From UHGV virus genome UHGV-0137099: a stretch of DNA of 25,615 nt; one strand, written 5' to 3'. Each line of letters opens with the position of its first letter. The first letter of the stretch is position 1. The stretch is from a virus. The notes under the pieces are model-generated. The model ran no database searches. It had not been told where the DNA came from and saw only the letters and a program-made list of their open reading frames with translations. The position numbers and the translations under genes were made by a program. Below, piece after piece: positions 6,026 to 25,615 of the stretch.

Positions 6026-6048
6026 AAAATCTAACAGGAGGGTGTTTC

Positions 6049-6243: not shown

Positions 6244-6305
6244 CAATTGGCGGCATCGAAATCTGATTACGCTTAATCAATTTTCAGCGACAGGAGACGC
6301 TCGAA

Positions 6306-6752: not shown

Positions 6753-6772
6753 CCTGTACCGAGGAAAGACCA

Positions 6773-6994: not shown

Positions 6995-6996
6995 CT

Positions 6997-9383: not shown

Positions 9384-9421
9384 CCGCGCCTGACCAGCGC
9401 GATTTAACAGAGGAAAGACCA

Positions 9422-10090: not shown

Positions 10091-10093
10091 GGC

Positions 10094-12094: not shown

Positions 12095-12127
12095 CAAAAT
12101 GCTGTAAGTGCTGCGAGAAGGTGATTT

Positions 12128-12466
12128 ATGGCTAAGTCATCCGCAGAACGTAAAGCCGCGCAGAGGGCGCGGCAATCTGCCGCCGGCAACCGGAAAATTG
12201 AGCTGGTTCTCGATGCGCAGGAAATGGACATGCTGGCGCGTAACTGCGCCGCCCGGCGCCCGGGCCGTGAACCGTACGAACTGGCCGAGTACATAGCTAT
12301 GCTGATCCGTCAGGATGATGTGCGGCTTAGTGGCCACATCAAATCGATCAGCAAACGCCTGTGTGGAAAGTGCGGTGAGTCGCTGCCGATCACCTCCTGC
12401 CCGTGTGCTGGTGATTCGCAATGCTGGGTAACGCGCGGGTGGCACGAAACTAAGCTGACAGTGTGA
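12128..12466 (+). CDS. Hypothetical protein with C-terminal Cys cluster (CGKCGESLPITSCPCAGDSQC)
   Basis: 112-aa ORF; possible small zinc-binding protein; no family recognised. Confidence 0.45.
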   Translation: MAKSSAERKAAQRARQSAAGNRKIELVLDAQEMDMLARNCAARRPGREPYELAEYIAMLIRQDDVRLSGHIKSISKRLCGKCGESLPITSCPCAGDSQCWVTRGWHETKLTV

Positions 12467-12541
12467 GGAGTAATCATTTTTTATGAAGCCTTATATGTTC
12501 TTGATAAAAGATGTGATTTATCAATTTATGCCCTTAAAAAT

Positions 12542-12570
12542 TTGCGATCACTACTCGTTGGTAGTATATA
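12542..12570 (+). promoter_or_regulatory. Sigma70-like promoter inside an AT-rich moron
   Basis: -35 TTGCGA (12542-12547), 17-bp spacer, -10 TATATA (12565-12570); followed by palindrome ACTGTGAATTTATACAGT and SD GGAGAGG. Confidence 0.45.
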
Positions 12571-12609
12571 TACTGTGAATTTATACAGTATTATTGTTGA
12601 GGAGAGGTA

Positions 12610-12801
12610 GTGGTTGATAAGAAAGACGCAGGAGACCTTCTCCCCGACAATGGTGATGTACTGATTACTTGTGAAAATGGGAAGATTAAGAAGACCAGAA
12701 TTGTCCATCCCGATGAGCACGTAGCGACACTTAACGCGTTGTTTGAATTAGCTAAATTGACTGGTTATACCATTATCAAACCAGACGGCAATATGCTATA
12801 A
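12610..12801 (+). CDS. Hypothetical small protein (63 aa) in an AT-rich moron
   Basis: GTG start after SD GGAGAGG; local GC clearly lower than its neighbours; own promoter-like sequence upstream. Confidence 0.4.
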   Translation: MVDKKDAGDLLPDNGDVLITCENGKIKKTRIVHPDEHVATLNALFELAKLTGYTIIKPDGNML

Positions 12802-12869
12802 TTACACCGTTGGCCTGAACACCCAACACCATGTAATTCTGAACAATTGCTGCGCTAAAGGGGATCCCA

Positions 12870-13466
12870 ATGGCGCAGTATTCTTTTGTAAAAGCACCCG
12901 GCGGTGTATTAATTCCGGCAACGCCTGACGCCCGCGATTTTTTAGAAAAAAAAGTCCGCCTGGGCGGTATTTTGTATGCAGATTTTAAGCAGGCAAGAAA
13001 CCCGGCATTTCACCGTAAATTTTTTGCCCTCCTGAATCTTGGATTTGATTACTGGCAACCTTCCGGCGGTGCAATATTGCCAGCTGATAAAAAACTGGTT
13101 CGTGGTTATGTGCAACTGGTAGCCCACTATGCCGGGCATGCAGACACGTTGCAGGAACTGGCGGATCAGTACCTCCGCGATGAGGCAGAAAAACGCGCAG
13201 GGAATATCAGCGCTGTTAAATCGTTTGAAGCATTCCGTTCCTGGGTAACTATCGAAGCTGGTTTTTATACCGAATACCAGATGCCTGATGGCACCACCCG
13301 CAAAGAACCCAAATCCATATCGTTCGCAAAAATGGACGATGTAGAATTCTCCCAGCTGTATAAATCCGTATTAGACGTCCTCTGGAATTTTATTCTATTC
13401 CGCACCTTCCCCAATCAGCAGGCAGCGGAAAACGCAGCCTCTCAGCTTTTCAGTTATGCGGCCTGA
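12870..13466 (+). CDS. Hypothetical phage protein (198 aa)
   Basis: Long clean ORF with SD AAAGGGGA upstream; no catalytic motif recognised. Confidence 0.6.
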   Translation: MAQYSFVKAPGGVLIPATPDARDFLEKKVRLGGILYADFKQARNPAFHRKFFALLNLGFDYWQPSGGAILPADKKLVRGYVQLVAHYAGHADTLQELADQYLRDEAEKRAGNISAVKSFEAFRSWVTIEAGFYTEYQMPDGTTRKEPKSISFAKMDDVEFSQLYKSVLDVLWNFILFRTFPNQQAAENAASQLFSYAA

Positions 13467-13476
13467 GGCGGACACT

Positions 13477-13953
13477 ATGAAATTCAATATTCGCTCTCAG
13501 ATCGTCGAAATGGATGTGGCCGACGCCCTGAATTTTGTGGGTTACCCCATCCACATTGGCTCGAATGGCTATGCAAAAGTCACCGGCTGGCATTTTGGCA
13601 AGGAAAGATACCTTCATCGCGTCATCATGAATGCGGGACCTCAGGATGTTGTTGATCACATTGATGGTAATAAGCTCAACTGCTCCCGCTCAAATTTGAG
13701 GATCTGCACACAGTCAGACAATACCAAAAACGTTGGTTTGAGGAGTGACAATAGCTCGGGAATTCCGGGAGTTTACTGGGTACCCACTCGCCTCAAATGG
13801 GCGGCGCAAATTTCAGTTGATGGCAGGACTGTTAGTTTAGGCCGCTTTGATGAAATGGCCGATGCTATCGATGCCCGCCGGAAAGCAGAAGATTTGTATT
13901 ACGGGGAGTTTGCAGCCAGCAAGGGGGTGCTTTGTGAAAAAGCGCACCAGTAA
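13477..13953 (+). CDS. HNH endonuclease with C-terminal AP2 DNA-binding domain (homing-endonuclease-like)
   Basis: HNH block HRVIMNAGPQDVVDHIDGNKLNCSRSNLRICTQSDNTKN; AP2-like block GIPGVYWVPTRLKWAAQISVDGRTVSLGRFDEMADAIDARRKAEDLYYGEFA. Start set at ATG 13477, after the upstream stop. Confidence 0.8.
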   Translation: MKFNIRSQIVEMDVADALNFVGYPIHIGSNGYAKVTGWHFGKERYLHRVIMNAGPQDVVDHIDGNKLNCSRSNLRICTQSDNTKNVGLRSDNSSGIPGVYWVPTRLKWAAQISVDGRTVSLGRFDEMADAIDARRKAEDLYYGEFAASKGVLCEKAHQ

Positions 13954-14248
13954 ATCAGACAAACAGCATTTCCAAGATCTCGTAGAGATAGGTTGTATTG
14001 TCTGCAAAGTACACCTCGGCGTGTACTCCCCCCCTGAAATTCACCACATCCGCAAAGGGCAGGGCATAGCCCAGCGCGCCGACCACAAAGAAACTCTCCC
14101 GCTTTGCCCTCCACACCACAGAACCGGCGGACACGGCGTAGCTATCCATGCAGGGCAAAAAACATGGGAAGAAAACTACGGAACGGAGACTGAATTGCTC
14201 GAACAGGTCACTAACGAGGTAAAGGAATTACGCTTATGCAGAATTTAA
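13934..14248 (+). CDS. HNH-family nuclease, Ref-like (recombination enhancement function) candidate
   Basis: Cys/His pattern CIVCKVH ... HHIRKG ... LPLCPPHH typical of zinc-finger HNH nucleases; GTG start at 13934 preceded by AAGGGGG. The track's longer start would overlap the HNH-AP2 gene. Confidence 0.5.
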   Translation: MKKRTSKSDKQHFQDLVEIGCIVCKVHLGVYSPPEIHHIRKGQGIAQRADHKETLPLCPPHHRTGGHGVAIHAGQKTWEENYGTETELLEQVTNEVKELRLCRI

Positions 14249-14403: not shown

Positions 14404-14700
14404 ATGCCGCTGGTCGCCACCTTCCGTACAGACTGGTTCAGAGTCATTACCGACCTGACCCGAAAAAATCTCACCACTCAGCAAATCGCCGATGAACTTG
14501 GCGTTTCAAAATCCGCCGTCCTCGGCTGGAAATCTGGATCAGAGCCTCGCCATGGTCACGGTGAAGCATTGATTGCTCTCTGGTGTCTGGCTACCAGCTC
14601 AGACCGTAAAAAACTCCCTACTGTGCTTTACCGGCAGTGGTGGACGTTCCGCCGCCCTGTTTTTGGTCGGGAAACTGACCAGAAGGGCAACACACAATGA
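14404..14700 (+). CDS. Hypothetical HTH-containing protein (98 aa), possible late regulator
   Basis: SD AGGGGG upstream; HTH-like segment LTTQQIADELGVSKSAVLGW. Confidence 0.5.
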   Translation: MPLVATFRTDWFRVITDLTRKNLTTQQIADELGVSKSAVLGWKSGSEPRHGHGEALIALWCLATSSDRKKLPTVLYRQWWTFRRPVFGRETDQKGNTQ

Positions 14701-14728: not shown

Positions 14729-15169
14729 ATGGCTCGACCGAAAAAAATCGTTGAGACGCCGGGGCAGGAAAAATCTGCGCCGGAAGAAAAAACGCTCGTT
14801 ACTGAGGGGCAGTTAATTACTGCTGAACAGAACGGCGCGCAGCACCAGGGAAACGGCAGCGGCGAAGAGACCGTGCAGAAAAAGGTTTCAACACTGCTTG
14901 ATGGTACTCAGTTGGCAGAACGTAACGCCATTCTCGCCACGCTGAACGCGCAGGGTGCTGCCATCGTTGCCCGCTTCGAAGAGTACGCCTTCACCGACAT
15001 TGTCGGCCACCCGCTGACCAACTGCCTCGATTTCCTCGATCTGGTACGCAAAGCCACTGATTTAAGCACTGGCGGCACAGCGGAGCAGGTGACAAACGAG
15101 GAAGGCAAAAAGCAACCCGTACGCAGCGCGCCGGTATTAACCGAACATGGCTGGCACGTTCCGGGCTAA
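14729..15169 (+). CDS. Hypothetical protein (146 aa)
   Basis: ORF with SD GGAGTG upstream, in the leader of the virion module. Confidence 0.5.
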   Translation: MARPKKIVETPGQEKSAPEEKTLVTEGQLITAEQNGAQHQGNGSGEETVQKKVSTLLDGTQLAERNAILATLNAQGAAIVARFEEYAFTDIVGHPLTNCLDFLDLVRKATDLSTGGTAEQVTNEEGKKQPVRSAPVLTEHGWHVPG

Positions 15170-15179
15170 GGAGAGTTTT

Positions 15180-15401
15180 ATGTGTGGTAGCGCACCCAAA
15201 GTTGTTCAGTCAGACCCGCAGGCCGAAGCCGATGCAGCAGCTGACGCAGCGGCCAAAGCTGCGAACGCTGACGCAGCAGCGCGCAAAAAGCGCAAACAGG
15301 GATCATCCCTGCTGGCCAGTGGCGCAGAAGGCGCGACGGATACAGGTTCTTCCCTGCTGTCCACTGGCGCACAGGCCGCAAAAAATACGTTAGGGGCTTA
15401 A
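15180..15401 (+). CDS. Hypothetical Ala-rich small protein (73 aa) carrying two SSLL-S/A-G repeats
   Basis: Strong SD AAGGAGAG 5 nt before ATG 15180; near-identical 21-bp direct repeat in DNA (TCCCTGCTGGCCAGTGGCGCA / TCCCTGCTGTCCACTGGCGCA). Confidence 0.45.
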   Translation: MCGSAPKVVQSDPQAEADAAADAAAKAANADAAARKKRKQGSSLLASGAEGATDTGSSLLSTGAQAAKNTLGA

Positions 15402-15404
15402 TTC

Positions 15405-17030
15405 ATGGATCAACTCGCCAGCCGGTTAATCAGGCGCGCTGACACGCTGAAAGCAAATCGCCAGGTGCATGAAAGCGTCTGGCGAGAGTGCTACGACTAC
15501 ACCTATCCGCTGCGCGGGGCCGGGTTTTCGTCTGAGGTGCTGGACGCACAGAGCGCGAAACATAAGGTTGCAAAGCTGCTGGACGGCACAGCCACCGACA
15601 GCGCCCGCATGCTGGCGTCCGCGCTTATGTCAGGGATGACCCCGGCGAATGCTCAATGGCTGAACCTCGACAGCGAATTACTGCCTGATGACGCTAAGGC
15701 GTGGTTGTCCACCTGTGCAACGCTGGTATGGGAAAATATCCACGCCGCTAACTTTGACGCGGAAGGGTACGAGGCCAATCTCGATGTGGTCTGCGCTGGC
15801 TGGTTCGCGCTGTACGTCGATGAGGACAAGGAAGAGGGCGGATTTACCTTTCAGCAGTGGCCGCTGGCGCAATGCTTTGTGACCTCCACCCGCCGGGACG
15901 GCATCGTTGACACGATTTATCGCTGCTATCAGCTCACCGCTGAACAGGCAGTGAAAGAATTTGGCGCGGACAGGGTAAGCGAAAAAATCCGCGATGCTGC
16001 AAAAAACAAACCCGACGATAAATTTGATTTCCTGCACTGTATTTTCCCGCGCGATACCTACGCCGAAAATGCGAAGCTGGCGCGCAACATGCGTTTTGCA
16101 TCGTTCAACGTGGAAGTGAGCGGCAAGCGTATTGTGCGTGAATCCGGCTATCACGAATTCCCTGTATGTGTCCCGCGCTGGATGAAAATCCCCGGCGGCT
16201 CCTACGGCATCGGCCCGGTATACGACGCGCTGCCGGACTGCAAAGAGCTGAACGAAACCAAACGCATGGAGAAGGCCGCGCAGGATCTGGCTATCTCCGG
16301 GATGTGGATTGCTGAAGATGACGGCGTGCTTAATCCGCGCACGGTCAAAGTCGGCCCGCGCCGCATCATCGTGGCAAACAGCACCGAAAGCATGAAACCG
16401 TTGCTCACCGGCGCAGATTTCAACGTTGCGTTTACCGCTGAACAGCGTCTGCAGGCTTCCATTCGCAAAATCATGATGGCCGATCAGCTACAGCCGCAGG
16501 ATGGCCCGGCAATGACCGCTACCGAAGTGCATGTGCGTGTCGCGCTGATCCGCCAGTTGCTCGGCCCGGTCTATGGCCGTTTTCAGGCTGAATACCTGCA
16601 ACCGCTGGTGGAGCGCTGCTTTGGTATTGCGTTCCGCGCTGGCGTTTTCCCTCCCGCCCCCGAGAGCCTCCAGAGTGCCAATTTTAACGTGCGTTATATC
16701 TCCCCGCTGGCCCGCGCGCAGAAGCTGGAAGATGTGACCGCCATCGAGCGCTACGGCCAGAACATCATGCAACTGGCGCAGGCGTACCCCGATGTACTGG
16801 ACAACATGGACAGCGACGAGGCGAGCAAGGTTGTCGGCGAGGCTCTTGGCGTTCCCGCAAAAGTCATGCGCTCTGCTGATGCGGTCGAGCAACTTCGACA
16901 GCAGCGCCAGCAGATGCAACAGCAGCAGGCGCAACAGCAGATGCTGATGCAGGCCGGGACGGAAGCCGCAGGCGCAGCAGGGCAGACAGCAGGTGCAATT
17001 ATGGGACAACGACTGGCGGGCAACCAATGA
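15405..17030 (+). CDS. Head-to-tail connector (portal) protein, podovirus/T7-like type
   Basis: 541 aa, immediately upstream of scaffold-like and capsid genes; Gln-rich C-terminus (QLRQQRQQMQQQQAQQQMLMQ) as in T7-type connectors. Assigned by size, order and composition, not by alignment. Confidence 0.65.
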   Translation: MDQLASRLIRRADTLKANRQVHESVWRECYDYTYPLRGAGFSSEVLDAQSAKHKVAKLLDGTATDSARMLASALMSGMTPANAQWLNLDSELLPDDAKAWLSTCATLVWENIHAANFDAEGYEANLDVVCAGWFALYVDEDKEEGGFTFQQWPLAQCFVTSTRRDGIVDTIYRCYQLTAEQAVKEFGADRVSEKIRDAAKNKPDDKFDFLHCIFPRDTYAENAKLARNMRFASFNVEVSGKRIVRESGYHEFPVCVPRWMKIPGGSYGIGPVYDALPDCKELNETKRMEKAAQDLAISGMWIAEDDGVLNPRTVKVGPRRIIVANSTESMKPLLTGADFNVAFTAEQRLQASIRKIMMADQLQPQDGPAMTATEVHVRVALIRQLLGPVYGRFQAEYLQPLVERCFGIAFRAGVFPPAPESLQSANFNVRYISPLARAQKLEDVTAIERYGQNIMQLAQAYPDVLDNMDSDEASKVVGEALGVPAKVMRSADAVEQLRQQRQQMQQQQAQQQMLMQAGTEAAGAAGQTAGAIMGQRLAGNQ

Positions 17031-17260
17031 TCAAAAAAGACGTAACCCCTGAAGACTACCGGCGCATTTTCGAGGAAATGCCCGGCGGGCCGCAGGTGCT
17101 GGACGACATTACCCGCCGCTTCGGGCGTGAGGCATATGTCAAAGGCGGTACTGAGGGCGACCGCGAAACCTGTTACCGGGCCGGACAGCGTTCCGTTCTC
17201 GATTTTATTCTCAGTCAAATCAACAAGGCCGATGGAGTAGAAGACTATGTGGAAGATTAA
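17027..17260 (+). CDS. Hypothetical protein (77 aa)
   Basis: ATGA overlap with the portal stop. Confidence 0.5.
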   Translation: MIKKDVTPEDYRRIFEEMPGGPQVLDDITRRFGREAYVKGGTEGDRETCYRAGQRSVLDFILSQINKADGVEDYVED

Positions 17261-18095
17261 ACACTTATTGATGAACGCCGAGCAGGGCGCAGAAGCGCCA
17301 GCAGGCAGCACAGGGGGCAATGATGGTGGCAATGGCGATGGTACTCAAAATCCGGGCGGCGGTAATCCTGCTGGTACTTCGCTACTCAGCACCGGCGCGG
17401 TCGAACAAGGCGCGGATGACTGGCTACCTGAAAAATACCGCGTTATGGGCGATGACGGAAAACTCAACGTTGAAGGCTCAGCCCGCAAACTGGCGGATGC
17501 TTACTCGCACCTTGAAAAGCGCATGGGCAGCGGGGACACGCCGCCGAAAACTGCTGATGAGTATGCGCCAAAGGTAGAGGTCGAGGGCTTCAAGTGGGAC
17601 GAATTCAAAGCCGACCCACGCATGCAATCCTTCATGAAATCGGCGCATGCCAAAGGCATCACCAACGATCAGATGGGTTTCATCCTGGGCGAATATGCAC
17701 AGCTGGCCCCCGAACTGGTTAACGGTGCTGCGACGCTGGATTCGGAAGCCGCCGCCACGCAGCTGCGCGAGACGTGGAAAACTGACGCCGAGTTTAATAA
17801 AAACATCGGTCTGGCTTTCCGGGCGTTTAACTCTCTGGCGGATGACAGCGACAAAGGGCGTATGGATGAAATCGGCAATAACCCGCTGGTGATCCGCATG
17901 CTGGCGAAAATCGGCGCTGAAATGCAGGAAGATGCACCGGCGGGCGGTGATGTGAATCTCGAAGAGCAGCAATCAATCCGCGACCTGATGAAATCCCCGG
18001 CGTATATGGATCCTAAACACGCTGACCATGAGAACGTTTCCGCCCGGGTTCGCGCCTATTACCAGAAGCGTTACGGCGATCAAACTGTAGCGTGA
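17247..18095 (+). CDS. Putative capsid assembly (scaffolding) protein
   Basis: 282 aa, strongly acidic, Gly/Ala-rich N-terminus, between portal and major capsid; assignment positional. Confidence 0.5.
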   Translation: MWKIKHLLMNAEQGAEAPAGSTGGNDGGNGDGTQNPGGGNPAGTSLLSTGAVEQGADDWLPEKYRVMGDDGKLNVEGSARKLADAYSHLEKRMGSGDTPPKTADEYAPKVEVEGFKWDEFKADPRMQSFMKSAHAKGITNDQMGFILGEYAQLAPELVNGAATLDSEAAATQLRETWKTDAEFNKNIGLAFRAFNSLADDSDKGRMDEIGNNPLVIRMLAKIGAEMQEDAPAGGDVNLEEQQSIRDLMKSPAYMDPKHADHENVSARVRAYYQKRYGDQTVA

Positions 18096-18128
18096 CATGT
18101 CACGACAACTTAACCAGAGGAAAGACCA

Positions 18129-18485
18129 ATGAGCGACAAAGATATCGAACAGCAAATTCAGGCTAAAGGCTTAACCGCGCCGCGCGTCACTCCACAGCAC
18201 ATTGATAGCGTTATTGCTGAATGTCATTACTTTACGGCTGGCGAGGCTGCGCGCGCTGGGTGGCCTGACCCTAATGCCGCCGATCCGATTCACCCAAATC
18301 TAGACCTACTTACTATCTGCGTTCTGGTGCTACGTAACGGCTTCACCGTCACCGGCGAAAGCGCCTGCGCCAGCCCGGAAAACTTCGACCCTGAAATCGG
18401 GCGCAAGATTGCACGCGATAACGCGGTAAATAAAATCTGGATGCTGGAGGGGTATTTGCTCAAACAGAAATTAAGCGAACAGTAA
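18129..18485 (+). CDS. Hypothetical virion-module protein (118 aa)
   Basis: Preceded by palindrome CGTGACATGTCACG and AGGAAAGACCAATG; between scaffold and capsid genes. Confidence 0.5.
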   Translation: MSDKDIEQQIQAKGLTAPRVTPQHIDSVIAECHYFTAGEAARAGWPDPNAADPIHPNLDLLTICVLVLRNGFTVTGESACASPENFDPEIGRKIARDNAVNKIWMLEGYLLKQKLSEQ

Positions 18486-18506
18486 TACTGCTATCGATAA
18501 AACTTA

Positions 18507-18535
18507 GCCCGCCAATGTGCGGGCTTTGTTATTTG
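18507..18535 (+). terminator. Putative intrinsic terminator or attenuator upstream of the capsid gene
   Basis: Hairpin AGCCCGC-CAATGT-GCGGGCT followed by TTGTTATTT. Confidence 0.45.
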
Positions 18536-18700
18536 GTCGGGATTCCGACCGCACACCTCGATAACAATCACTCCATAACCAGCCCGGCGGGGACGCCGGA
18601 TACCTGATTTCTCCCGCAATGCGCCAGCGCCAACCGCATTGTGCAGATTTGGGCCGGGAAACCGACACCCCGCAGGCGATTTTTTACTGGAGTGATTTTT

Positions 18701-19606
18701 ATGCCATTTGATGCAAACAAGAACATGATTACCGCTGCGTTTGTTACGCAGTTTCATGATTCTTTCGAAATTGCTGCACAGCAAAAGGATTCGCGCCTGC
18801 AAGCGGCTGTCCATGACCGTGGCAGCATCACCGGTGCGTCGTTCACCATCAACGATATGGGTACCATTGAGATGACCCAGATCACCACGCGTTTCGGTGA
18901 TACCGTCTGGGATGTTCCGGAGGCCGGTACCCGTAATGCGCTGATGGCCGACTACGGCGTTTTCGTACCGGTCGAGAAACGCGACCTGCGCAAGCTGATT
19001 GCCGACCCGCAGGGGCCGTATTTGCAGCTCACCCTGTCCGCCGCCAACCGCAAAAAAGACGATGTTATTTACCGCGCGCTGCTCGATGCGGTACTGCGTA
19101 AGACTGAGAACAACGGCGCGTATGCATCCGTTACCCTCCCGGCCTCGCAGAAAATCGTTGCTGGCGGTACTGGCATGACCAAAGCCAAACTGATCGCAGC
19201 AAAAGCGATGTTCCGCCGTAACGAATGTGACGAGCAGAACGGCGAAGAGCTCTACATGACGTACAACGCCGACATGCTGACGCAGATCCTCAGCGATACC
19301 ACGCTGACCAGCGCCGACTTTATGGCGGTGAAAATGCTTCAGGAAGGTGCGGTAAACGGTAACTGGCTGGGCTTTAAATGGCTGGCTTACGAGAAACTGG
19401 ACTCTGTGACCGCCGAAAGCGTCACCACCAAAACCGCAGCAGCCTGGTGTAAATCCGCTGTGCATTTCGGTACTGGCGCCGAGTATAACGTCGATATCGG
19501 CCCGCGCCGCGATAAAAATAACACCATCCAGATTTCCGTTGATGCGTCCTATGGTGCTGGCCGTGCCAATGAGAAAAAAGTCGTTGCCATCGATTTTGTA
19601 GCATAA
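18701..19606 (+). CDS. Major capsid protein
   Basis: 301 aa from ATG 18701 (SD GGAG upstream); follows portal and scaffold and is followed by a strong terminator. The track's 321-aa version starts further upstream without an SD. Confidence 0.65.
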   Translation: MPFDANKNMITAAFVTQFHDSFEIAAQQKDSRLQAAVHDRGSITGASFTINDMGTIEMTQITTRFGDTVWDVPEAGTRNALMADYGVFVPVEKRDLRKLIADPQGPYLQLTLSAANRKKDDVIYRALLDAVLRKTENNGAYASVTLPASQKIVAGGTGMTKAKLIAAKAMFRRNECDEQNGEELYMTYNADMLTQILSDTTLTSADFMAVKMLQEGAVNGNWLGFKWLAYEKLDSVTAESVTTKTAAAWCKSAVHFGTGAEYNVDIGPRRDKNNTIQISVDASYGAGRANEKKVVAIDFVA

Positions 19607-19622
19607 AGCCGCTGGTACCTTT

Positions 19623-19650
19623 GCCGGGGGATCCCTCCCGGCCTTTTTTC
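19623..19650 (+). terminator. Rho-independent terminator immediately after the capsid gene
   Basis: Hairpin GCCGGG-GGATCCCT-CCCGGC followed by CTTTTTTC. Confidence 0.65.
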
Positions 19651-19665
19651 ATCTGAGGTAAGGCT

Positions 19666-20229
19666 ATGGCTTCCAGTATCTCTATCTGTTCTAACGCACT
19701 GCTAGCGCTCGGCGCCCATCCCATTAACAGCTTCGACGAAGCGACCGAACACGCCCGCCTGTGCTCCAATATTTACCCTACCGTACGCAATGACCTGCTG
19801 CGAAAACATCCGTGGAACTGCGCGGTAAAACGCGTTGTGCTCTCACCGTCCAGCACCGCGCCCGCATTTGGTTTCGGCTACCAGTTCCCGCTACCGGGCG
19901 ATTTAATCCGGATCCTTTCCGTTGGCCGCGAATATGAGGATATCGGGTACCGCGTCGAAGGAAACCGCCTGCTGGCGAACCAGAACGTGATTTATCTGCG
20001 CTACCTGTTCCGTAACGAGGATGAATCAACGTGGGATTCGTCGCTGGTCAATCTGGCCGAAGCATTTATGGCCGCAAAACTGGCGTATGCCGTCACCGGC
20101 TCCGCGAGTCTGCGCGACAGTCTGACGCAGGAAGCTGCATACCTTCTTCGCCAGGCTAAATCTATCGACGGGCAGGAAGAACCGCCGGAAACACTGGACG
20201 GCTTTCCAACTTATGAATCGAGGTTCTGA
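19666..20229 (+). CDS. Putative tail tubular protein A-like (adaptor/nozzle component)
   Basis: 187 aa directly after capsid and terminator; SD GAGGTAAGG; assignment by size and gene order. Confidence 0.45.
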   Translation: MASSISICSNALLALGAHPINSFDEATEHARLCSNIYPTVRNDLLRKHPWNCAVKRVVLSPSSTAPAFGFGYQFPLPGDLIRILSVGREYEDIGYRVEGNRLLANQNVIYLRYLFRNEDESTWDSSLVNLAEAFMAAKLAYAVTGSASLRDSLTQEAAYLLRQAKSIDGQEEPPETLDGFPTYESRF

Positions 20230-22220
20230 TGCGCGCGAACCTGATAAAAACCAATTTTACAGCCGGGGAAATTTCCCCGCGCCTGATGGGCCGTGTTGAT
20301 ATCGCCCGCTATGCCAACGGTGCAAAAATTATCGAAAACGCGGTGTGCGTGGTGCAGGGCGGTGTCGTTCGCCGACCGGGTACGCGCTTTGCCGCTGCCG
20401 CTAAATATGGTGACCGGACAGCACGACTGATCCCCTACGTCTTTAACCGCTCGCAGGCGTACATGCTCGAATTCGGCGACGGATACCTGCGCATTTACCA
20501 GAACGGCCGGCAGCTGGTAAACGAAGACAATACCCCGTATGAAATCGCCAGCCCGTACACCGTCGATATGTTGTCTGAGGTGAATTACGTGCAGGGTGCT
20601 GACACGATGTTTTTAGTGCACCAGAGCGTCCCGCCGCACCGCTTGCAGCGTAAGGGGCAAACTGATTGGGTACTGGAAGCCGCGCCGTTTATCGTTGAGC
20701 CATTCGACGAAATCCGCGACACGCCGGAGAAATGGTGTAAGCCATCCGTTAAAGAATTCGTTGGCTCAGAAATCACGCTGACGCTCAGTGATGCCGAACC
20801 CGCAGATGGTGACGATTCCCCCGCGTTTACTGGCACCGGCTGGGTAGCGGAGGACGTTGGTTCGTACGTTCGCATTAACAGTGGTCTGGTGCTGATTAAG
20901 AGCATCACCAGCGCGCAGGTCGCAGTCGGTACCATCCGCACCGATTTAAGCGCGACGCAGGCGGCATCCCCCGGAGCCTGGACACGTGAAGATACTGTCT
21001 GGACGGAGGAATTTGGCTACCCCGGCGCGGTGACGCTGTACCAGCAGCGACTGGTTCTGGCTGGTTCCCCACAGTACCCGCAAACAATTTGGTGGAGCGA
21101 AACCGGCGTTTACCTGTCGTTTGAGCTGGGAACGGACGACGACGACGCGATCAGCTTTACGCTGTCTTCTGACCAGTTAAACCCAATTGTGCATCTGGCG
21201 CAGATGAATACGCTTATCGCGCTGACGTACGGCGGCGAGTTTACGATCACCGCTGGCAGCGACGCGGCAATCACGCCCACCAATATTTCGGTAAAAAATC
21301 CCAGCCCGTACGGTTGCAACAGCATTCGCCCGGTTCGCGTCGGTACCGAAATTATGTTTATCCAGCGTGCCGGGAAAAAACTGTATGCCGTGGCGTATGA
21401 CCCCGACAGCTACGTTTCGTATTCCGCCAATGATTTAACGGTGCTGGCCGAACACATCACGGCCGACGGCGTTCTCGATATGGCGTATCAACAACAGCCT
21501 GATGCGTTCGTGTGGCTGATCCGCGCCGATGGCGTACTGGTTACGATGGGAATAGACCGGGCGCAGGATGTTGTCGCATGGTCACGTCAGATCACCGATG
21601 GCGTTTTTGAATCGGTGGCGAGTATTCCCTCGGAAAGCGATGACGTGATTTATGTGCTGGTGCGCCGGGAAGTTAACGGCCAGACCGTTCGTTATGTTGA
21701 AGTATTCGACAACACCCTGAATACCGATTCCGCCGTAACCGGCTCCAGTTCAGAAGGTGCCACCACATGGACAGGCCTTTCTCATCTCAATGGAAAAACG
21801 GTTGATGTGGTGGCCGATGGTTCCGTGATGCCACAGGCAACGGTAACAGACGGGCAAATCACTCTCAGCCGCAAAGCAAAAAAAATCGAAGTCGGCCTGC
21901 ATTATGAAACCACCATTCAGACACTGACGCCGGAAATCTCAACGACCGAAGGTACCACGCAGAACGCCCGCAAGCGTACCAGCGAAGTCACGCTGCGCTT
22001 TATGGAAACCACCGGCGCAGAGTGCAACGGTCAGGTGATCCCGTTTCGTACCTTCGGCCCAAAAATCCTTAACCAGCCCGCACCGCTTTTCACCGGTGAT
22101 CATTATTTCGGGAAACTTGGCTGGGAGCGTGGGGAAGACACTTTGATTATTCAGCAACGCCAGCCGCTGCCGTTTCACCTGCTGGCGATTATTTTCACGT
22201 TCTCCAGCAACGGGGGGTAA
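20229..22220 (+). CDS. Putative tail tubular protein B-like / major tail-tube component
   Basis: 663 aa, translationally coupled to the previous gene (stop/start overlap); assignment by size and order. Confidence 0.45.
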   Translation: MRANLIKTNFTAGEISPRLMGRVDIARYANGAKIIENAVCVVQGGVVRRPGTRFAAAAKYGDRTARLIPYVFNRSQAYMLEFGDGYLRIYQNGRQLVNEDNTPYEIASPYTVDMLSEVNYVQGADTMFLVHQSVPPHRLQRKGQTDWVLEAAPFIVEPFDEIRDTPEKWCKPSVKEFVGSEITLTLSDAEPADGDDSPAFTGTGWVAEDVGSYVRINSGLVLIKSITSAQVAVGTIRTDLSATQAASPGAWTREDTVWTEEFGYPGAVTLYQQRLVLAGSPQYPQTIWWSETGVYLSFELGTDDDDAISFTLSSDQLNPIVHLAQMNTLIALTYGGEFTITAGSDAAITPTNISVKNPSPYGCNSIRPVRVGTEIMFIQRAGKKLYAVAYDPDSYVSYSANDLTVLAEHITADGVLDMAYQQQPDAFVWLIRADGVLVTMGIDRAQDVVAWSRQITDGVFESVASIPSESDDVIYVLVRREVNGQTVRYVEVFDNTLNTDSAVTGSSSEGATTWTGLSHLNGKTVDVVADGSVMPQATVTDGQITLSRKAKKIEVGLHYETTIQTLTPEISTTEGTTQNARKRTSEVTLRFMETTGAECNGQVIPFRTFGPKILNQPAPLFTGDHYFGKLGWERGEDTLIIQQRQPLPFHLLAIIFTFSSNGG

Positions 22221-22672
22221 TGATGATCCGCAACGCTACCGCCGGTGACATTCCGGCGCTTATTGAACTGGGAACCCGGATGTATCTGGAATCCCGCTAT
22301 TCCGAAAACTCACCCTTTGATGCGGACAAATGCGCGGAACTGGCTGAGAGCCTGATTTATTCCACCGCCGGCTGTGTGCTGGTGGCTGAAAAGAATGGCC
22401 AGGTGATTGGCTGGCTCGGCGGCGGTATCGCGGAGCAGTTTTTTTCCCGCCAGTTGATGGCGTTTGAATATGGCCTGTTCATCGCTCCGGAGCACCGGGG
22501 CGGCAGTGCTGGCCCACGGTTGGCCCGCGCATTTATCGAATGGTCGAAAGAACACGGCGCCGCAGTGATCAACATGGGGATCACTACGGGCGTACATGCC
22601 GAACGTACTGGCCAGCTTTATTCCCGCCTCGGTCTGCAACGTACCGGGCTGCTTTATTCGATGGAGGTTTAA
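22220..22672 (+). CDS. GNAT-family N-acetyltransferase embedded in the virion module
   Basis: 150 aa; acetyl-CoA-binding-type segment IAPEHRGGSAGPRLARAFIEWSKEHGA (Q/R-x-x-G-x-G/A pattern) and overall GNAT layout; TAATG overlap with the upstream tail gene. Confidence 0.8.
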   Translation: MMIRNATAGDIPALIELGTRMYLESRYSENSPFDADKCAELAESLIYSTAGCVLVAEKNGQVIGWLGGGIAEQFFSRQLMAFEYGLFIAPEHRGGSAGPRLARAFIEWSKEHGAAVINMGITTGVHAERTGQLYSRLGLQRTGLLYSMEV

Positions 22673-22674
22673 CG

Positions 22675-23163
22675 ATGTGTACAGGTGTTGAAATCGCGCT
22701 GGTGGCTTCTTCTGTTCTCGCTGCAGGTGGTGCAGTGGCCAGCGGCCAGCAGCAAAAGAAAATGGCGAACTATCAGGCCGCGCAAGCTGAAGCCGACGCC
22801 GAAGCATCAAAAGCAGCGGCGAAAGTTGAAGCGGAGCGTATTCGTAAAGCCGGTCGCCAGCAGGCATCTGCCGCCAATGCTGCGTTGGCAGCTTCAGGCG
22901 TTGAGACGGGAGAGGGAACGGCGCTCCGTGTCACGTCAGGTATTGCCGGGGATGCGGAGCAGGACGCCTACCAGACAATCCTTAATGGCGTGAATTCTTC
23001 TAATCGCCTGCAGGCGCAGGCACAAGCCGACAGGATCAGCGGCAGTAATGCGGCGACAGCGGGGAATATCAGCGCCGGCAGTTCGCTTTTGAGCGCTGGC
23101 GGGACGGCGTACAGCGGCTGGCAAAAGGCTAAAACTGGCAAATACGGATTATATGCGGAGTAA
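22675..23163 (+). CDS. Putative internal virion/ejection protein with N-terminal hydrophobic segment
   Basis: 162 aa from ATG 22675; hydrophobic N-terminus VEIALVASSVLAAGGAVASG, Ala/Gln-rich body, SSLLSAG motif near the C-terminus. Confidence 0.5.
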   Translation: MCTGVEIALVASSVLAAGGAVASGQQQKKMANYQAAQAEADAEASKAAAKVEAERIRKAGRQQASAANAALAASGVETGEGTALRVTSGIAGDAEQDAYQTILNGVNSSNRLQAQAQADRISGSNAATAGNISAGSSLLSAGGTAYSGWQKAKTGKYGLYAE

Positions 23164-23168
23164 AAAAC

Positions 23169-25535
23169 GTGAGAATTCCAACGGGTAATTTTGGCAATGT
23201 GACACCGCAGGCACAGCAGACGCGTGTCGCTGTTAGCAACGTAGGCACGATCGGCAATGCGGTGTCTGGTTTTGGGGCCGCCACAGGACAGGTAGCAGAA
23301 CAAGTACAGCATGAGCAGGATAAAGCCGATGTGGCAGCCACACAGGCTATTTTGACCGATCTGGAAGCTAAATCTAATGACCGCTGGGAAAACCCGGAGA
23401 CTGGCGCCACGGTCACGCGTCAGGGCTTTAAATCGTCCGGTGTGGTCACCGATATGGATAAGGCCGACGCTGGCGATTACGAGGAAGCGCGGAAGCGCGT
23501 ACCGCCCAACCAGTTAAACTATTTTGATGCGCAGTGGAAAGCGGGGCAGATACGCCGGACAAGCACCTATAGCGGTTTCGAGCGTGCGCAGACGGATGAG
23601 GCCCAGCGACAGCAGCTGAATGCGACGGTGACCACTTCCGTTGAACAGGAGGCCAGCGCCTACGATAACCCAATGCAGGCAGGGCTGATACGCAGCGCCC
23701 GTAAACACTCGATCGAGATGTATGGCCAGGCGCGTGGTTGGGCCCAAGAGCGCATCGACGCGGCGGTATCAGAAGCGAATCAAAAAGCGCTGGAGCAGCG
23801 AGCGCAGAACTACGCGGTAACCAATCCCACTGGCTGGCTGAATGGCGATTTTACGTTGATTAACAGTAGCACCGGCGAACTAGATATGCGCGCCGTTGGC
23901 CTGGTGGAGTCCGGTGGTAAGCACCGCAATGCGGATGGTAGTCTTGTTACATCGCCCGCTGGCGCGCAGGGTGAATTTCAGTTGATGCCGGACACAGGGA
24001 AAGAACTGGCGGCTAAACGTGGCGTGGAATACAACCCGGACGATCCTGTGCAGCATGCGCAGCTGGCGCGTGATTATGCCGGGCAGCTCAGTAAAAAATA
24101 CCAGTCAGAACCACTGGCCGGGGCCGCGTATAACTGGGGGATGGGTAACGTCGATAAACTGATCGCCAAAGTGGGCGACCCGCGCAAAGGCGAAATCTCG
24201 ATGGCGGATTTCGTTAAGCAGCTGCCCGCAGAAACGCGCGGTTGGTTGTCCCGCTACAACAAAAATAAAACCGGTCTCGACCCGGTAGCAGTAAACAAAA
24301 TCGACAATATCGCCGAAGCGCAGATCCGGCAGCAGCGTACGGCGCTGCGCCAGCAGATTGACCCGATTCTCAATAATACAATGGCGCAGCTGTATAACGG
24401 CGAGGTGCCGGATGCTATGCCGAACGCCTCCACCATTTTGTTTGCGTACGGTGAGCAGGGGCAAACAGCGGTCAAGCAGCTGGATATCGCGATTGATAAC
24501 GCCAGAACCTTCCAGGCTATTCAGTACGCCACCCCGGCAGAACAGCAGGCCGAACTGGCGAAAGTGAAGCCGCAGGCAAACGATCCCGATTTTGCGCTAA
24601 AACTTGATGCACACGGCAAACTTAGCGCGCTGGTGCAGAAGAGCAACGCCAATATTCAGGCGCAGCGCGACTCCGCCCGCTTTAACGATGCGCTGCTCTC
24701 CGGCGAGAAACTCGACCCGAGCAATAAATCTATGCAGAGGGCGGCGGACAATACGCCATCGGCGCTTAATTTCCGCATTAACGATGCAACCACCCACGAT
24801 GCTATCGTACAGCAGGTAAACCAGACCGGCATTGTTCCGTCGCAGGTAACATCACAGCTCAATGCTATTTCCCGCTCCAGTAGCTCAGATGTAGTGAAGC
24901 AAGGCGCTGAAATATTCAATAGGCTTTACGACTCTAAATCTTCTAACGTCAGTGATATGCCAAAAGATATACAAAGTTTTTATCTGACAATTAAGCAATT
25001 GACCGAAGCTGGTATGGCTTCTGATGAGGCAGTGAAACAGGCACAGAATATAACCTATAATCAGAACGATGCATTAAAAAATCAGTTAACTTCGACGCAG
25101 AGCACTAAAGAATATAAAAGCGAGCGAGATAGTGCTATGGATTCAGCTCGAAATAGTATGGCTCAGTGGTTCAGAATTGATCCAAAGGCAAGCGATACAA
25201 CAACTGATGCAGTTAATTTTCGAAATGACTACCAGTCCCTTTACGATATCAACTATCGAAATTCTGGTGGGAATTCTGAAATTGCCAAAAAAATGACCAA
25301 CACTCAAATCTCTCGTAACTGGAGCATTAGCGAAGTGAACGGCAAGGCCCAGTTCATGAAATATGCACCAGAAGCACTATATAACTTTGGTCCGTCAGGT
25401 TGGCAGGCTGAACTGTGGAAAGAAAAAAAAGAGGAACTAATGTATGGCGAGCGTAATAAGGAGATCTCTACCAGCCCAACGCAGTTAGGGAAGGTGCGAA
25501 TAAGCAGGTCATTTCTTCCCAAGCTGACTCGCTGA
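23169..25535 (+). CDS. Internal virion protein with lytic transglycosylase (SLT) domain
   Basis: 788 aa, GTG start; SLT-type motifs GEFQLMPDTGKEL ... AYNWGMGNV; the C-terminal ~200 codons are markedly AT-rich. Confidence 0.75.
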   Translation: MRIPTGNFGNVTPQAQQTRVAVSNVGTIGNAVSGFGAATGQVAEQVQHEQDKADVAATQAILTDLEAKSNDRWENPETGATVTRQGFKSSGVVTDMDKADAGDYEEARKRVPPNQLNYFDAQWKAGQIRRTSTYSGFERAQTDEAQRQQLNATVTTSVEQEASAYDNPMQAGLIRSARKHSIEMYGQARGWAQERIDAAVSEANQKALEQRAQNYAVTNPTGWLNGDFTLINSSTGELDMRAVGLVESGGKHRNADGSLVTSPAGAQGEFQLMPDTGKELAAKRGVEYNPDDPVQHAQLARDYAGQLSKKYQSEPLAGAAYNWGMGNVDKLIAKVGDPRKGEISMADFVKQLPAETRGWLSRYNKNKTGLDPVAVNKIDNIAEAQIRQQRTALRQQIDPILNNTMAQLYNGEVPDAMPNASTILFAYGEQGQTAVKQLDIAIDNARTFQAIQYATPAEQQAELAKVKPQANDPDFALKLDAHGKLSALVQKSNANIQAQRDSARFNDALLSGEKLDPSNKSMQRAADNTPSALNFRINDATTHDAIVQQVNQTGIVPSQVTSQLNAISRSSSSDVVKQGAEIFNRLYDSKSSNVSDMPKDIQSFYLTIKQLTEAGMASDEAVKQAQNITYNQNDALKNQLTSTQSTKEYKSERDSAMDSARNSMAQWFRIDPKASDTTTDAVNFRNDYQSLYDINYRNSGGNSEIAKKMTNTQISRNWSISEVNGKAQFMKYAPEALYNFGPSGWQAELWKEKKEELMYGERNKEISTSPTQLGKVRISRSFLPKLTR

Positions 25536-25586
25536 TTAAAATTTCGCGGATCTGGGCCGATTTTTTTCCCGCAAACACATCGAATT

Positions 25587-25607
25587 AGCCTATTTAGGCT
25601 ATTTTTT
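25587..25607 (+). terminator. Rho-independent terminator after the SLT-domain gene
   Basis: Hairpin AGCCT-ATTT-AGGCT followed by ATTTTTT. Confidence 0.5.
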
Positions 25608-25615
25608 CCACCATT

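Follow-up and report, generated by a model that had tools for sequence, protein, structure and literature searches.

A T7-style virion gene order in a probable YeP4-like prophage: a lambdoid early region joined to a virion block of mixed podovirus affinity, with putative late promoters and a structured capsid-gene leader

The virus genome UHGV-0137099 carries a run of virion genes in the order of phage T7 beside lambdoid genes for lysogeny and replication, which raises the question of where such a cassette comes from and how it could be expressed in a temperate phage. The stretch analysed here, referred to as the window, is a whole metagenome contig of 25,615 bp (ENA ERZ1744283, NODE_208). An earlier note on this DNA had interpreted it as a mosaic of a lambdoid early region and an Autographiviridae-like structural cassette, and had considered temperate T7-like hybrids of this kind uncommon. 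Our analysis makes it very probable that the window represents the left ~25 kb (about two-thirds) of a ~35-kb temperate podovirus prophage, integrated at a tRNA-Leu gene and belonging to the lineage of Yersinia phage YeP4. In this best explanation two exchangeable modules, a lambdoid early region and a YeP4-like virion block, are combined; the head-tail core of the latter is of the HTVC010P/epsilon15/BPP-1 kind, and its late genes are proposed to be served by promoters with a conserved dyad. The confidence expressed here holds for these elements jointly.

All genes from position 14404 onward lie on the + strand, and the virion genes are found where the earlier note had placed them, in the T7/SP6 order that it described. 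The portal (head-to-tail connector, 541 amino acids (aa), 15405-17030) matches PF12236 Head-tail_con with E 2e-123 and phrog_332 with E 1e-179; its matches in the PDB are 8ck0 (E 5e-56), Legionella phage LME-1 9efk (1e-15) and T7 6r21 (3e-7). It is followed by a Bbp19-like small protein (17027-17260; PF25181, E 1e-12) and an acidic scaffold-like protein of 282 aa and pI 4.85 (17247-18095), assigned to phrog_3742 (E 2e-80) and, with E 1e-7, to phrog_458 'protease'. The latter protein occupies the position of the 'protease' of epsilon15 (gp6) and BPP-1 (Bbp18) and weakly matches both. The major capsid protein (301 aa, HK97 fold; PF19821, E 2e-70; phrog_3437, E 3e-119) extends over 18701-19606, its true start according to the gene call being 18701 and not the GTG at 18641. 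An AlphaFold model of this protein (mean predicted local distance difference test score 63, residues 1-83 unstructured) gave the LME-1 capsid 9eg4 as top hit in Foldseek. The tail is represented by an adaptor (tubular tail protein A, T7 gp11 analogue; 187 aa, 19666-20229; phrog_394, E 1e-61) with PDB matches to 8ck1_E 'Connector Protein' (E 8e-11) and LME-1 orf17 (E 9e-4), and by a nozzle (tubular tail protein B, T7 gp12 analogue; 663 aa, 20229-22220; phrog_376, E 3e-220; PF25675 Phage_nozzle, E 4.5e-8) with matches to 8ck1_A 'Tail Nozzle' (E 8e-102) and LME-1 (E 3e-12). Entries 8ck0 and 8ck1 may stem from Cobetia phage Carin-1, to judge by a remark in the LME-1 paper, and no claim is made on this.

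The run closes with a GNAT acetyltransferase (22220-22672; PF00583, E 3e-11), a gp14-like internal virion or ejection protein of 162 aa with a hydrophobic N-terminus (22675-23163; phrog_418 'internal virion protein', E 2e-41; PF24072 T7_gp14 with E 0.0024, below the Pfam cut-off), and an internal virion protein with an SLT lytic transglycosylase domain (23169-25484; PF01464, E 9e-10; phrog_1044). This last protein is truncated in the window and is 88.6% identical over 772 aa to a 904-aa homologue in E. coli. PDB sequence searches with the capsid and with the SLT protein returned no match, and NCBIfam had none for ten proteins of the module. The gene extents given before stand, except that the capsid start had to be moved to 18701 and the end of the SLT reading frame corrected to the point where an insertion sequence (IS) cuts it. 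In addition, the GNAT gene stands where epsilon15 has gp13, a protein annotated as GNAT-like and internal to the virion; an acetyltransferase is conserved among the ejection proteins.

The nearest cultured phages are YeP4, YeP5 and YeP6 of Yersinia (unclassified Caudoviricetes), whose virion block is collinear with that of the window. Eight window proteins are 62-88% identical to those of YeP4 (portal 82.5%, capsid 88%, adaptor 70%, nozzle 77%, GNAT 67%, gp14-like protein 77%, scaffold 63%), whereas the YeP4 SLT protein has diverged, so that only its first 71 residues align. YeP4 also carries a capsid leader and, five times, the dyad motif described below. As in the rest of the lineage, its genes for the small and large terminase subunits (terS and terL) follow the internal virion genes; position and type of terL were checked in relatives only. 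All three phages were obtained by induction of Y. enterocolitica O:9 lysogens, and their icosahedral heads bear very short tails (PMC6548840). A complete prophage, that of E. coli 23GD11002 (NZ_CM180093, ~35 kb, annotated by PGAP only), agrees with the window in its attachment site at tRNA-Leu/yecA, its lambdoid layout and its virion block, the latter with 82% DNA identity over 95% of its length. Its right end supplies what the window lacks: a 904-aa SLT protein, a 964-aa gp16-like protein, a small ORF (open reading frame) on the - strand, a 115-aa ORF (terS) and terL, followed by a 729-aa SGNH tailspike, holin, lysozyme and spanin. In contrast to the window, it has an ISEc20 in the early region, an SLT gene free of any IS, no HNH gene and no Gp49-family insert. 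YeP4 likewise lacks the Gp49-family insert and the IS.

To follow descent, the window proteins were compared with those of T7, SP6, BPP-1, epsilon15, HTVC010P and P22, both by tblastn and with profiles built from the lineage's own proteins and scored in bits. No T7 or P22 virion protein was found in the window by tblastn. Clear portal, adaptor and nozzle matches were obtained to HTVC010P, BPP-1 and epsilon15, with E-values from 1e-78 to 1e-15 for nozzle and adaptor against the latter two. The portal profile reached 398 bits with HTVC010P, 259 with BPP-1 and 247 with epsilon15 as compared to 43 with T7, and none with SP6 or P22; for the nozzle profile the values were 413, 276 and 330 bits, with 15 for T7, 11 for SP6 (E 0.012) and none for P22. 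In the order HTVC010P, BPP-1, epsilon15, the adaptor profile gave 176, 64 and 95 bits, the scaffold profile 76 (gp07), 22 (Bbp18) and 29 (gp6), and the profile of the gp14-like protein 23, 17 (Bbp22) and 66 (gp14); none of these three detected T7 (its scaffold gp9 included), SP6 or P22. The SLT profile recognised BPP-1 (27 bits) and epsilon15 (35 bits) and had no match in HTVC010P, T7, SP6 or P22. Finally, the capsid profile scored 240 bits to HTVC010P, with T7 and SP6 undetected.

Family assignments add to this. The portal falls into phrog_332 together with epsilon15 gp4, the T7 family phrog_449 being second-best. The capsid belongs to PF19821/phrog_3437 as in HTVC010P; at family level it otherwise matches only that of T7 gp10 (phrog_267, 3e-6) and, reciprocally, T7 gp10A matches PF19821 at 3e-4. 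Between the window capsid and epsilon15 gp7 or BPP-1 Bbp17 (PF20911) no cross-match was obtained with Pfam, PHROGs, BLAST or the lineage profile, and no window protein matches P22 by BLAST or profile. The earlier note had conceded that its reading would fall if portal and capsid clustered with P22- or epsilon15-type proteins. For the portal this is the case with respect to epsilon15; the capsid groups elsewhere, with the HTVC010P-type family PF19821. For the part of the cassette present in the window, descent from Autographiviridae is not borne out, as portal, nozzle and adaptor score higher against HTVC010P, epsilon15 and BPP-1.

A second peculiarity of the locus is the terminase, which the earlier note had found lacking upstream of the portal and expected at the far end. 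The ORFs between 12870 and 15401 encode NinB, an HNH endonuclease, a Ref-like nuclease, a helix-turn-helix (HTH) protein and two unknowns, and a six-frame tblastn of the window, in which eight large and six small terminases as well as two phage RNA polymerases served as queries, returned no match below E 0.04. Accordingly, no terminase was overlooked upstream, in any frame. Among ~65 relatives, none has terL within 10 kb upstream of the portal. Conversely, terS and terL lie downstream of the internal virion genes in all 80 IMG/VR contigs for which gene order was counted (80 of the 525 contigs with close terL relatives); all 80 terL genes are detectable from T7, and an RNA polymerase was found in none of these contigs. 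Because the terminase is located only a few kb from the end of the ~35-kb contigs of relatives, the far-end prediction holds for the lineage, while the right end of the present copy is unseen. The prevailing order in IMG/VR is capsid, adaptor, nozzle, GNAT, gp14-like, SLT, 964-aa (gp16-like) protein, terS, terL and spike; 54 of the 80 contigs carry it from the adaptor onward, and most others are shorter pieces of it.

The terL of the E. coli relative scores 80 bits to T7 gp19 and has no match to the terL of epsilon15, BPP-1, HTVC010P or P22. By tblastn it matches 2203 phage records, and among the matches listed nearly all are T7-, SP6- or phiKMV-like podoviruses. In the same prophage, the 964-aa protein scores 54 bits to SP6 gp37, and the N-terminus of the tailspike is the T7 tail-fibre N-terminal domain PF03906, the tailspike as such giving 147 bits to epsilon15 gp20. 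Since head-tail core and right end match different phage groups, the sequence comparisons indicate that the virion module is itself composite: the core present in the window is of the HTVC010P/epsilon15/BPP-1 kind, and the right end, seen in relatives only, of the T7/SP6 kind. For the core, the matches to solved structures, best with 8ck0/8ck1 and LME-1, are in agreement.

The single-subunit RNA polymerase that the earlier note suggested looking for did not turn up. With the T7 and SP6 enzymes as tblastn queries nothing below E 1.5 was found in the window, outside which the right third of the prophage lies, and all window ORFs of more than 500 aa are assigned to other functions. The T7 RNA polymerase query was equally without a match in the E. 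coli 23GD11002 prophage, YeP4 or 152 related loci; the T7 DNA polymerase, gp5, used as a query, had no match either.

These observations have to be set against the proposal that a lambdoid prophage recently captured an Autographiviridae (T7/SP6/phiKMV) cassette and thereby became a rare temperate T7 hybrid. In its favour is the T7/SP6 gene order, seen in the window and, for the right part, in relatives. Moreover, the portal shares a Pfam family with T7 gp8, the capsid's only second family-level match is T7 gp10, the relatives possess a T7-type terL, an SP6 gp37-like protein and a T7 fibre N-domain, and the GNAT is homologous to SP6 gp28 (99.9 bits with the lineage profile), which is encoded just upstream of the SP6 portal. 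Yet this proposal is very improbable, and for the genes of the window it is already contradicted. Not only does tblastn fail to find a T7 virion protein in the window, for portal, adaptor and nozzle the scores with HTVC010P, epsilon15 and BPP-1 also exceed those with T7 by a factor of 5 to 25, with SP6 undetected (for the portal, 43 bits with T7 compared to 247-398 with the other three). Neither the window, nor the complete relatives, nor the ~150 loci contain the RNA polymerase. Genes confined to one strand and a T7 replication set are not seen; the early-left operon is on the - strand and replication genes are of the RepO and DnaB-type helicase kind. Furthermore, the block is fixed across five groups of bacteria, in which portal identity declines to 44%, and such a distribution speaks for an old temperate lineage instead of a recent capture. 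For annotation it follows that prophages of this kind should not be labelled T7-like or Autographiviridae from gene order alone.

A plain epsilon15-like (Uetakevirus) or BPP-1-like (Rauchvirus) prophage, with the terminase position explained as an effect of where the map is opened, was considered as well. Portal, adaptor and nozzle indeed belong to phrog_332, phrog_394 and phrog_376 and are followed by the GNAT/gp14/SLT ejection set, in an arrangement that equals epsilon15 gp13-gp15; nozzle and adaptor match both phages, and Bbp19 is present. The Gp49-family insert shares 74% identity with a gene of epsilon15, and the E. coli tailspike resembles epsilon15 gp20 (147 bits, see above). Against this, the capsids fall into PF19821 and PF20911, respectively, with no cross-match. 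In epsilon15, BPP-1, HTVC010P and phage BUCT708 (see below) terS and terL stand directly upstream of the portal, which is not so in the window, and the lineage's terL matches that of T7 and not those of epsilon15, BPP-1, HTVC010P or P22. As the early genes abut the portal and terS/terL of the relatives follow the internal virion genes, the position reflects a real rearrangement and not a map artefact. We regard this alternative as very improbable and retain the composite, YeP4-like block as the better description.

How this block came to stand beside a lambdoid early region is illuminated by phage vB_SmeS_BUCT708 (OM816834), which is 80-86% identical at the DNA level to window positions 1495-14238. 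Protein identities are 97% for CI, 94% for RepO, 89% for NinB, 85% for DnaB and 80% for a 727-aa exonuclease. The DNA similarity stops at ~14238, between the Ref-like nuclease gene and that of the 98-aa HTH protein, and this point is the joint between early and late modules. Beyond the joint BUCT708 continues with terS, terL and a virion block of epsilon15 layout, its terminase being upstream of its portal, and its virion proteins are only 27-34% identical to those of the window. Conversely, the window's type of virion block lies beside a lambdoid early region in loci L005, L009, L013, L014 and L053, and beside a YeP4/BPP-1-type early region with DNA polymerase and primase in L006, L008, L011, L012, L015 and L016. 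A joining of early region and virion block by module exchange, as the mosaic interpretation had implied, is supported by these sequence comparisons. The lineage hence offers a clean natural case of module swapping, with one lambdoid early region on two virion blocks and one virion block on two early regions.

Two features of the BUCT708 record were noted in passing. It was deposited as a Stenotrophomonas siphovirus, yet its genome displays a podovirus virion block of epsilon15 layout; moreover, its early region and the lone DNA matches in its capsid region are otherwise common to phages and prophages of enterobacteria. The record looks doubtful in its name and possibly also in the host assigned to it.

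The virion block is anything but confined to the window. A megablast of the block against 50,697 phage records matched only at the Gp49-family insert and the IS end, so that no phage is close at the DNA level. With the portal as tblastn query 262 phage records were matched, and among the matches listed none is T7-, SP6- or phiKMV-like. The nearest portal (89%) is from Enterobacter sichuanensis. A scan of one genome per species located the portal in 72 loci, which span Enterobacterales (including Enterobacter, Raoultella, Serratia, Pectobacterium, Pantoea and Symbiopectobacterium), Pseudomonas, Stenotrophomonas and other Xanthomonadales, Burkholderiales and Acinetobacter, with identity falling to 44%; the order HTH, portal, Bbp19, scaffold, capsid, adaptor, nozzle, GNAT, gp14-like is kept in ~65 of them. 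The capsid family comprises 1555 clusters at 90% identity in the protein database, many with names from Klebsiella, Salmonella, Serratia and Citrobacter. Among complete E. coli genomes the block occurs in 3 of 5426. By these sequence surveys the lineage is widespread, old and temperate, and rare only in E. coli; the capsid clusters, the 525 IMG/VR contigs and the ~65 species-representative genomes do not support the epithet 'uncommon'. The group is common but little studied, informal and unnamed, without an ICTV taxon, and the window is one more, IS-damaged member. The finding itself is ordinary: prophages of this type have repeatedly been sequenced, and there is at least one case of induction (YeP4). 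In its host, the YeP4 region was not rated intact by PHASTER (PMC6548840), and prophage-prediction software may misjudge such prophages. In summary, the earlier interpretation is partly supported: mosaicism, T7-style order and far-end terminase are upheld, Autographiviridae descent and rarity are not.

In our view the parts most worth following up are the putative late promoters and the capsid leader RNA. The virion block opens with the gene of a 98-aa HTH protein, o98 (14404-14700; phrog_16553), the first gene to travel with the block, which is present upstream of the portal in most relatives, in four bacterial orders and regardless of the early region. Pfam and NCBIfam contain no match to this protein, and a PDB search gave nothing usable. 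Inside the 3' end of its gene lies the first of two 16-bp dyads. Putative late promoter 1 (14637-14698, upstream of the ORF at 14729) consists of a hairpin with T-run (14637-14655), the dyad GGTCGGGAAACTGACC (14665-14680) and a -10-like hexamer CACAAT (14693-14698). Putative late promoter 2 (18535-18568) has the perfect dyad GGTCGGGATTCCGACC (18535-18550), 12 nt and a -10-like AACAAT (18563-18568). Both dyads are of the form GGTCGGGAWWCYGACC, are on the coding strand and come right after a hairpin plus T-run; at both, the distance to the nAnnAT hexamer is exactly 12 nt, and across 80 relatives the hexamer never varies in its A and T. With zero or one mismatch the dyad occurs three times in the window, as compared to ~0.015 expected by our own arithmetic.

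Complete relatives hold three to five copies on the coding strand ahead of late gene blocks. The E. coli relative (L001) has three (19226, 22966 and 35639), before portal operon, capsid and tailspike; YeP4 (L003) has five (1915, 17954, 21348, 32997 and 34938), the added sites preceding terS and the lysis genes. More distant relatives use a variant of the dyad, and the identical variant recurs at every site within a genome: CAAG..TTCG twice in Pantoea, GTCGAGAACTCGAC three times in Arenimonas and GGCGAGATTTCGCC twice in a Burkholderiaceae genome. Such co-change is the pattern expected of sites read by a phage-encoded DNA-binding protein. The motif was not found in BUCT708, epsilon15 or BPP-1. 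From sequence and placement, the sites are probably late promoters that depend on an activator, the dyad covering the -35 region, and the 98-aa HTH protein is a likely candidate for the late-gene activator, because its gene opens the module, precedes the first site and travels with the block in most lineages.

The second site is framed by terminators, and in this respect the earlier note was correct: the hairpins flanking the capsid gene, at 18506-18525 and 19623-19642, are real. According to hairpin analysis, the former acts in both directions, upstream of the capsid promoter region, and an equivalent hairpin and T-run precedes the dyad in most relatives. The latter, GCCGGGGGATCCCTCCCGGC followed by CTTTTTT, is an intrinsic terminator or attenuator on the + strand that starts 17 nt after the capsid stop; in all Enterobacterales and Acinetobacter relatives its position is kept, with compensating changes. 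The earlier note had likened it to T7 T-phi. Stem-loops soon after the capsid are annotated also in P22 (directly after gene 5) and epsilon15 (two genes past gp7), and the P22 record notes a like feature for HK97 and lambda. The post-capsid terminator hairpin is thus not T7-specific. No dyad is located between capsid and adaptor genes, even though the hairpin there is conserved, and tail and ejection genes would consequently have to be reached by read-through of this terminator.

Between the predicted transcript start (~18575) and the capsid Shine-Dalgarno sequence, covariation identifies three hairpins on the + strand (18580-18671): H2 (18580-18606), H3 (18615-18643) and H4 (18651-18671). Using RNAalifold and pair counts over 80 distinct sequences, 98.4% of the cells are paired, compared to 28-42% with slid partners, and 70 cells are changed on both sides, compared to 5-17 in the slid controls; none of 500 shuffles reached these values. 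H3 alone contributes four covarying pairs. A covariance model from Enterobacterales sequences finds the leader, matched in position and with 20-62 bits, in Pseudomonas, Xanthomonadales and Burkholderiales relatives; in these distant relatives the stems of H2 and H4 are rewritten and the loops and 3' bulges (GAUACC, ACACC) are kept, in an alignment that was fitted to the covariance model. The same model found no leader in Acinetobacter relatives, T7, SP6, P22, epsilon15, BPP-1, HTVC010P or BUCT708, and no Rfam family matches it. When the leader was folded as a lone sequence no signal emerged (z = -0.44), and its fold of minimum energy agrees with the covariation fold in H3 only. The structure is hence supported by covariation alone. 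The leader could be a cis antiterminator (put-like) for the downstream terminator, or an element for capsid translation or stability. A boxA/nut-like reading of the segment after the dyad was dropped because this segment is not conserved across relatives. As a separate observation, hairpin H4 contains GGCCGGGAAACCGAC (18651-18666), which matches the degenerate promoter dyad with zero mismatches; this may be a second protein site, an RNA mimic or coincidence.

The proximity of dyad and leader suggests another possibility, in which the dyad is the first hairpin (H1) of a long cis-acting RNA together with H2-H4, either put-like or pairing with the Shine-Dalgarno sequence, and all late genes form one long operon from an early promoter. 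RNAalifold pairs the post-dyad CACACC with the Shine-Dalgarno GGAGUG (93% of cells paired), the changes within the dyad are equally compatible with an RNA stem, and the leader lies upstream of a strong, conserved terminator that needs read-through. Still, the changes in the Shine-Dalgarno helix are almost all one-sided, with one of five pairs two-sided, in a single sequence. In front of the portal operon, tailspike, terS and lysis genes the dyad stands alone, without H2-H4. It retains its sequence across orders, whereas H2-H4 retain their pairing and vary in sequence, and the fixed 12-nt spacing to nAnnAT, together with the terminator directly upstream of both window sites, fits a promoter better. 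This RNA-only explanation is accordingly judged unlikely, and the dyad is treated in the following as part of a putative promoter.

On this basis a working model can be outlined. The early region, about 130-14240, would set lysogeny and replication using host RNA polymerase, and the module from about 14400 would be a self-contained virion block. Judging from homology with T7 and LME-1 tails, a dodecameric portal, the acidic scaffold and the HK97-fold capsid protein would build the procapsid, and a gp11-like adaptor ring with a gp12-like nozzle hexamer would form a stubby tail. The gp14-like protein, the SLT protein and perhaps the GNAT would be carried in the head and ejected, opening a channel through the envelope together with the gp16-like protein encoded downstream. 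In relatives, a T7-type terminase would package the DNA and the tailspike would be anchored via its T7-fibre-like N-domain. Lacking a phage RNA polymerase, a DNA-binding protein encoded in the module, most likely the 98-aa HTH protein, would activate host-polymerase promoters ahead of the portal operon and the capsid gene, in relatives also ahead of the tailspike, and in YeP4 ahead of terS and lysis genes as well. The post-capsid terminator would then provide an excess of capsid mRNA, with tail and ejection genes transcribed by read-through only.

A bolder generalisation is put forward tentatively, and may well be wrong: that the YeP4-like lineage represents a temperate counterpart of T7 without an RNA polymerase of its own, in which an HTH activator at three to five dyad promoters and a cis-acting leader RNA of ~90 nt govern the virion genes, and which sits at a junction between podovirus groups. 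If so, the leader would let host RNA polymerase pass the post-capsid terminator or tune capsid translation, and a T7-type terL, gp16-like protein and fibre anchor beside a portal and tail of the epsilon15/HTVC010P type would mark the junction of two large podovirus groups. In either case the putative dyad promoters and the leader, which matches no Rfam family, provide testable handles on a T7-style virion operon under host RNA polymerase.

Several points weigh against the interpretation of the window given at the outset. The right third of this prophage lies outside the window, and its terminase, gp16-like protein, tailspike and lysis genes were deduced from relatives with 78-89% identity. No homologue of the 98-aa HTH protein has been characterised, and its PHROGs family is labelled 'repressor'. 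The dyad could act as an RNA hairpin instead, leaving the promoter role putative. The scaffold label rests on position, acidity and weak matches, and epsilon15, BPP-1 and YeP4 annotate that position as 'protease'. Likewise, the fold search with the low-confidence capsid model confirms an HK97 fold only and cannot separate T7-like from other HK97 capsids. Finally, the sampled population could be mixed, with some of its cells carrying the IS insertion and others not.

The ends of the window bear on the state of this copy. At the left, a tRNA-Leu(taa) gene (35-121, + strand; ARAGORN and Rfam tRNA) constitutes the attachment site, and positions 1-260 are 91% identical to the tRNA-Leu/yecA junction of the E. 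coli 23GD11002 prophage. At the right, a TTAG target site (25485-25488) is followed by the terminal part of an IS5-family, ISKpn26-like element, inside which the contig ends. Alignment with three uninterrupted homologues places the switch from SLT gene to IS at 25485-25489, TTAG|GGAAGGTGCG; in the Raoultella homologue TTAG is present at the equivalent spot and the gene is uninterrupted. The stretch 25485-25615 (no strand assigned) is 93% identical to the end of an annotated element of the ISKpn26 family and has thousands of matching places across E. coli genomes. Most likely the contig ends here because the IS is a repeat. The stop of ORF 23169-25535 is therefore not natural: the phage part ends at 25484 and the rest is IS. 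The SLT gene is cut at codon ~773, so that 772 of ~904 codons remain and ~131 are missing relative to the 904-aa E. coli homologue. Due to the ISKpn26-like insertion, at which the contig stops, the rest of this gene and everything to its right are absent. With its SLT gene broken, this copy is probably defective for infection.

The early region is lambdoid, as had been proposed. On the - strand are a tyrosine integrase beside the attachment site (253-1269; phrog_1, E 1e-52), an excisionase (1253-1498; phrog_1266, E 2e-33), early-left recombination genes for a Gam-like protein and the 727-aa exonuclease (1895-4644; phrog_253 and phrog_2489) and a CI-like repressor (5582-5968). Divergently, on the + strand, follow Cro (6049-6243) and a CII-like/YdaT protein (6306-6752), this immunity switch being assigned through PHROG and Pfam (P22_Cro, HTH_3, YdaT_toxin). 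The O-type initiator RepO (6991-7980; phrog_428), short segments of which match many lambdoid phages, and a DnaB-type helicase (7977-9383; phrog_19) lead to a nin-like region on the + strand (10491-14248) with two DNA methyltransferases, a small regulator, NinB/DUF1367, an HNH endonuclease and a Ref-like nuclease. No window ORF matched antitermination families N or Q in PHROGs and Pfam; the 112-aa regulator at 12128-12466 may have a Q-like role. In place of a lambda-, HK97- or P22-type late operon that opens with a terminase, the late block opens with the HTH gene and the portal. The HNH endonuclease gene (13456-13953), between NinB and Ref-like nuclease, is lacking in both the E. coli relative and BUCT708; it probably represents a mobile insertion.

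Within the virion block, two small conserved ORFs of 146 and 73 aa precede the portal (14729-15401; phrog_17476 and phrog_9015); they are syntenic in Enterobacterales relatives and bear no resemblance to any terminase tested. An ORF of the Gp49/Sf6-gp66 family, not listed in the earlier note, is inserted at 18129-18485 (PF13876, E 1e-35) and followed by its own two-way terminator. It is 73.6% identical to the epsilon15 gene at 2181-2546, which is located elsewhere in that genome. YeP4 and the E. coli relative lack it at this place, and Acinetobacter and Pseudomonas relatives carry it at other positions. It is a mobile accessory gene (moron).

Compared with known systems, YeP4 is the closest counterpart of the virion block, and differs in its early region; this belongs to the BPP-1/Xfas53/APSE type and encodes a DNA polymerase, primase and helicase (PMC8579659) in place of the lambdoid CI/Cro/RepO/DnaB set. 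HTVC010P-type pelagiphages give the best profile matches outside the lineage and share the capsid family PF19821; unlike the lineage, they have a terL of another type upstream of the portal, live on marine alphaproteobacterial hosts, and gave no capsid leader. The temperate podoviruses epsilon15 and BPP-1 follow the order portal, small protein, protease/scaffold, capsid, adaptor, nozzle, (GNAT in epsilon15), gp14-like and SLT, and the GNAT, gp14-like and SLT run of the window parallels epsilon15 gp13-gp14-gp15; they depart from the window in the PF20911 capsid, in a terminase of different type upstream of the portal and in the absence of the dyad. Legionella phage LME-1 (PDB 9EFK, 9EG4) is likewise temperate and integrated, and its portal, adaptor and nozzle match those of the window by sequence. 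Its authors describe a T7-like virion and T7 gene order with no sequence similarity to T7 proteins (PMC12407071), and the window presents the same case. It is nonetheless a distant relative, from a different host class, and carries a head decoration protein that the window block does not have.

With T7 and SP6 the window and its relatives share the virion gene order, including the far-right terminase (in SP6 the tailspike comes after the terminase), a promoter (putative in the window) ahead of the capsid gene with a terminator behind it, and tail genes that would be reached via read-through. Homology extends in the relatives to terL, the gp16/gp37-like protein and the fibre N-domain, and the GNAT corresponds to SP6 gp28. 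As to T7 itself, portal and nozzle are remote homologues, whereas the lineage profiles do not pick up its adaptor, scaffold or capsid. The window differs in having genes on both strands, in being temperate, and in lacking a single-subunit RNA polymerase, a T7-type DNA polymerase and a primase-helicase. The putative late promoters are placed roughly like some T7 class III promoters, before portal operon, capsid and fibre, and the proposed read-through into the tail genes parallels T7 genes 11-12, which are transcribed past T-phi with no promoter of their own until phi13. The temperate T7-like phages treated in the literature, namely Pasto, HTVC019P, LUZ100 and a P. putida prophage, retain the RNA polymerase (PMC10134795), and the YeP4-like lineage is distinct from these polymerase-bearing phages.

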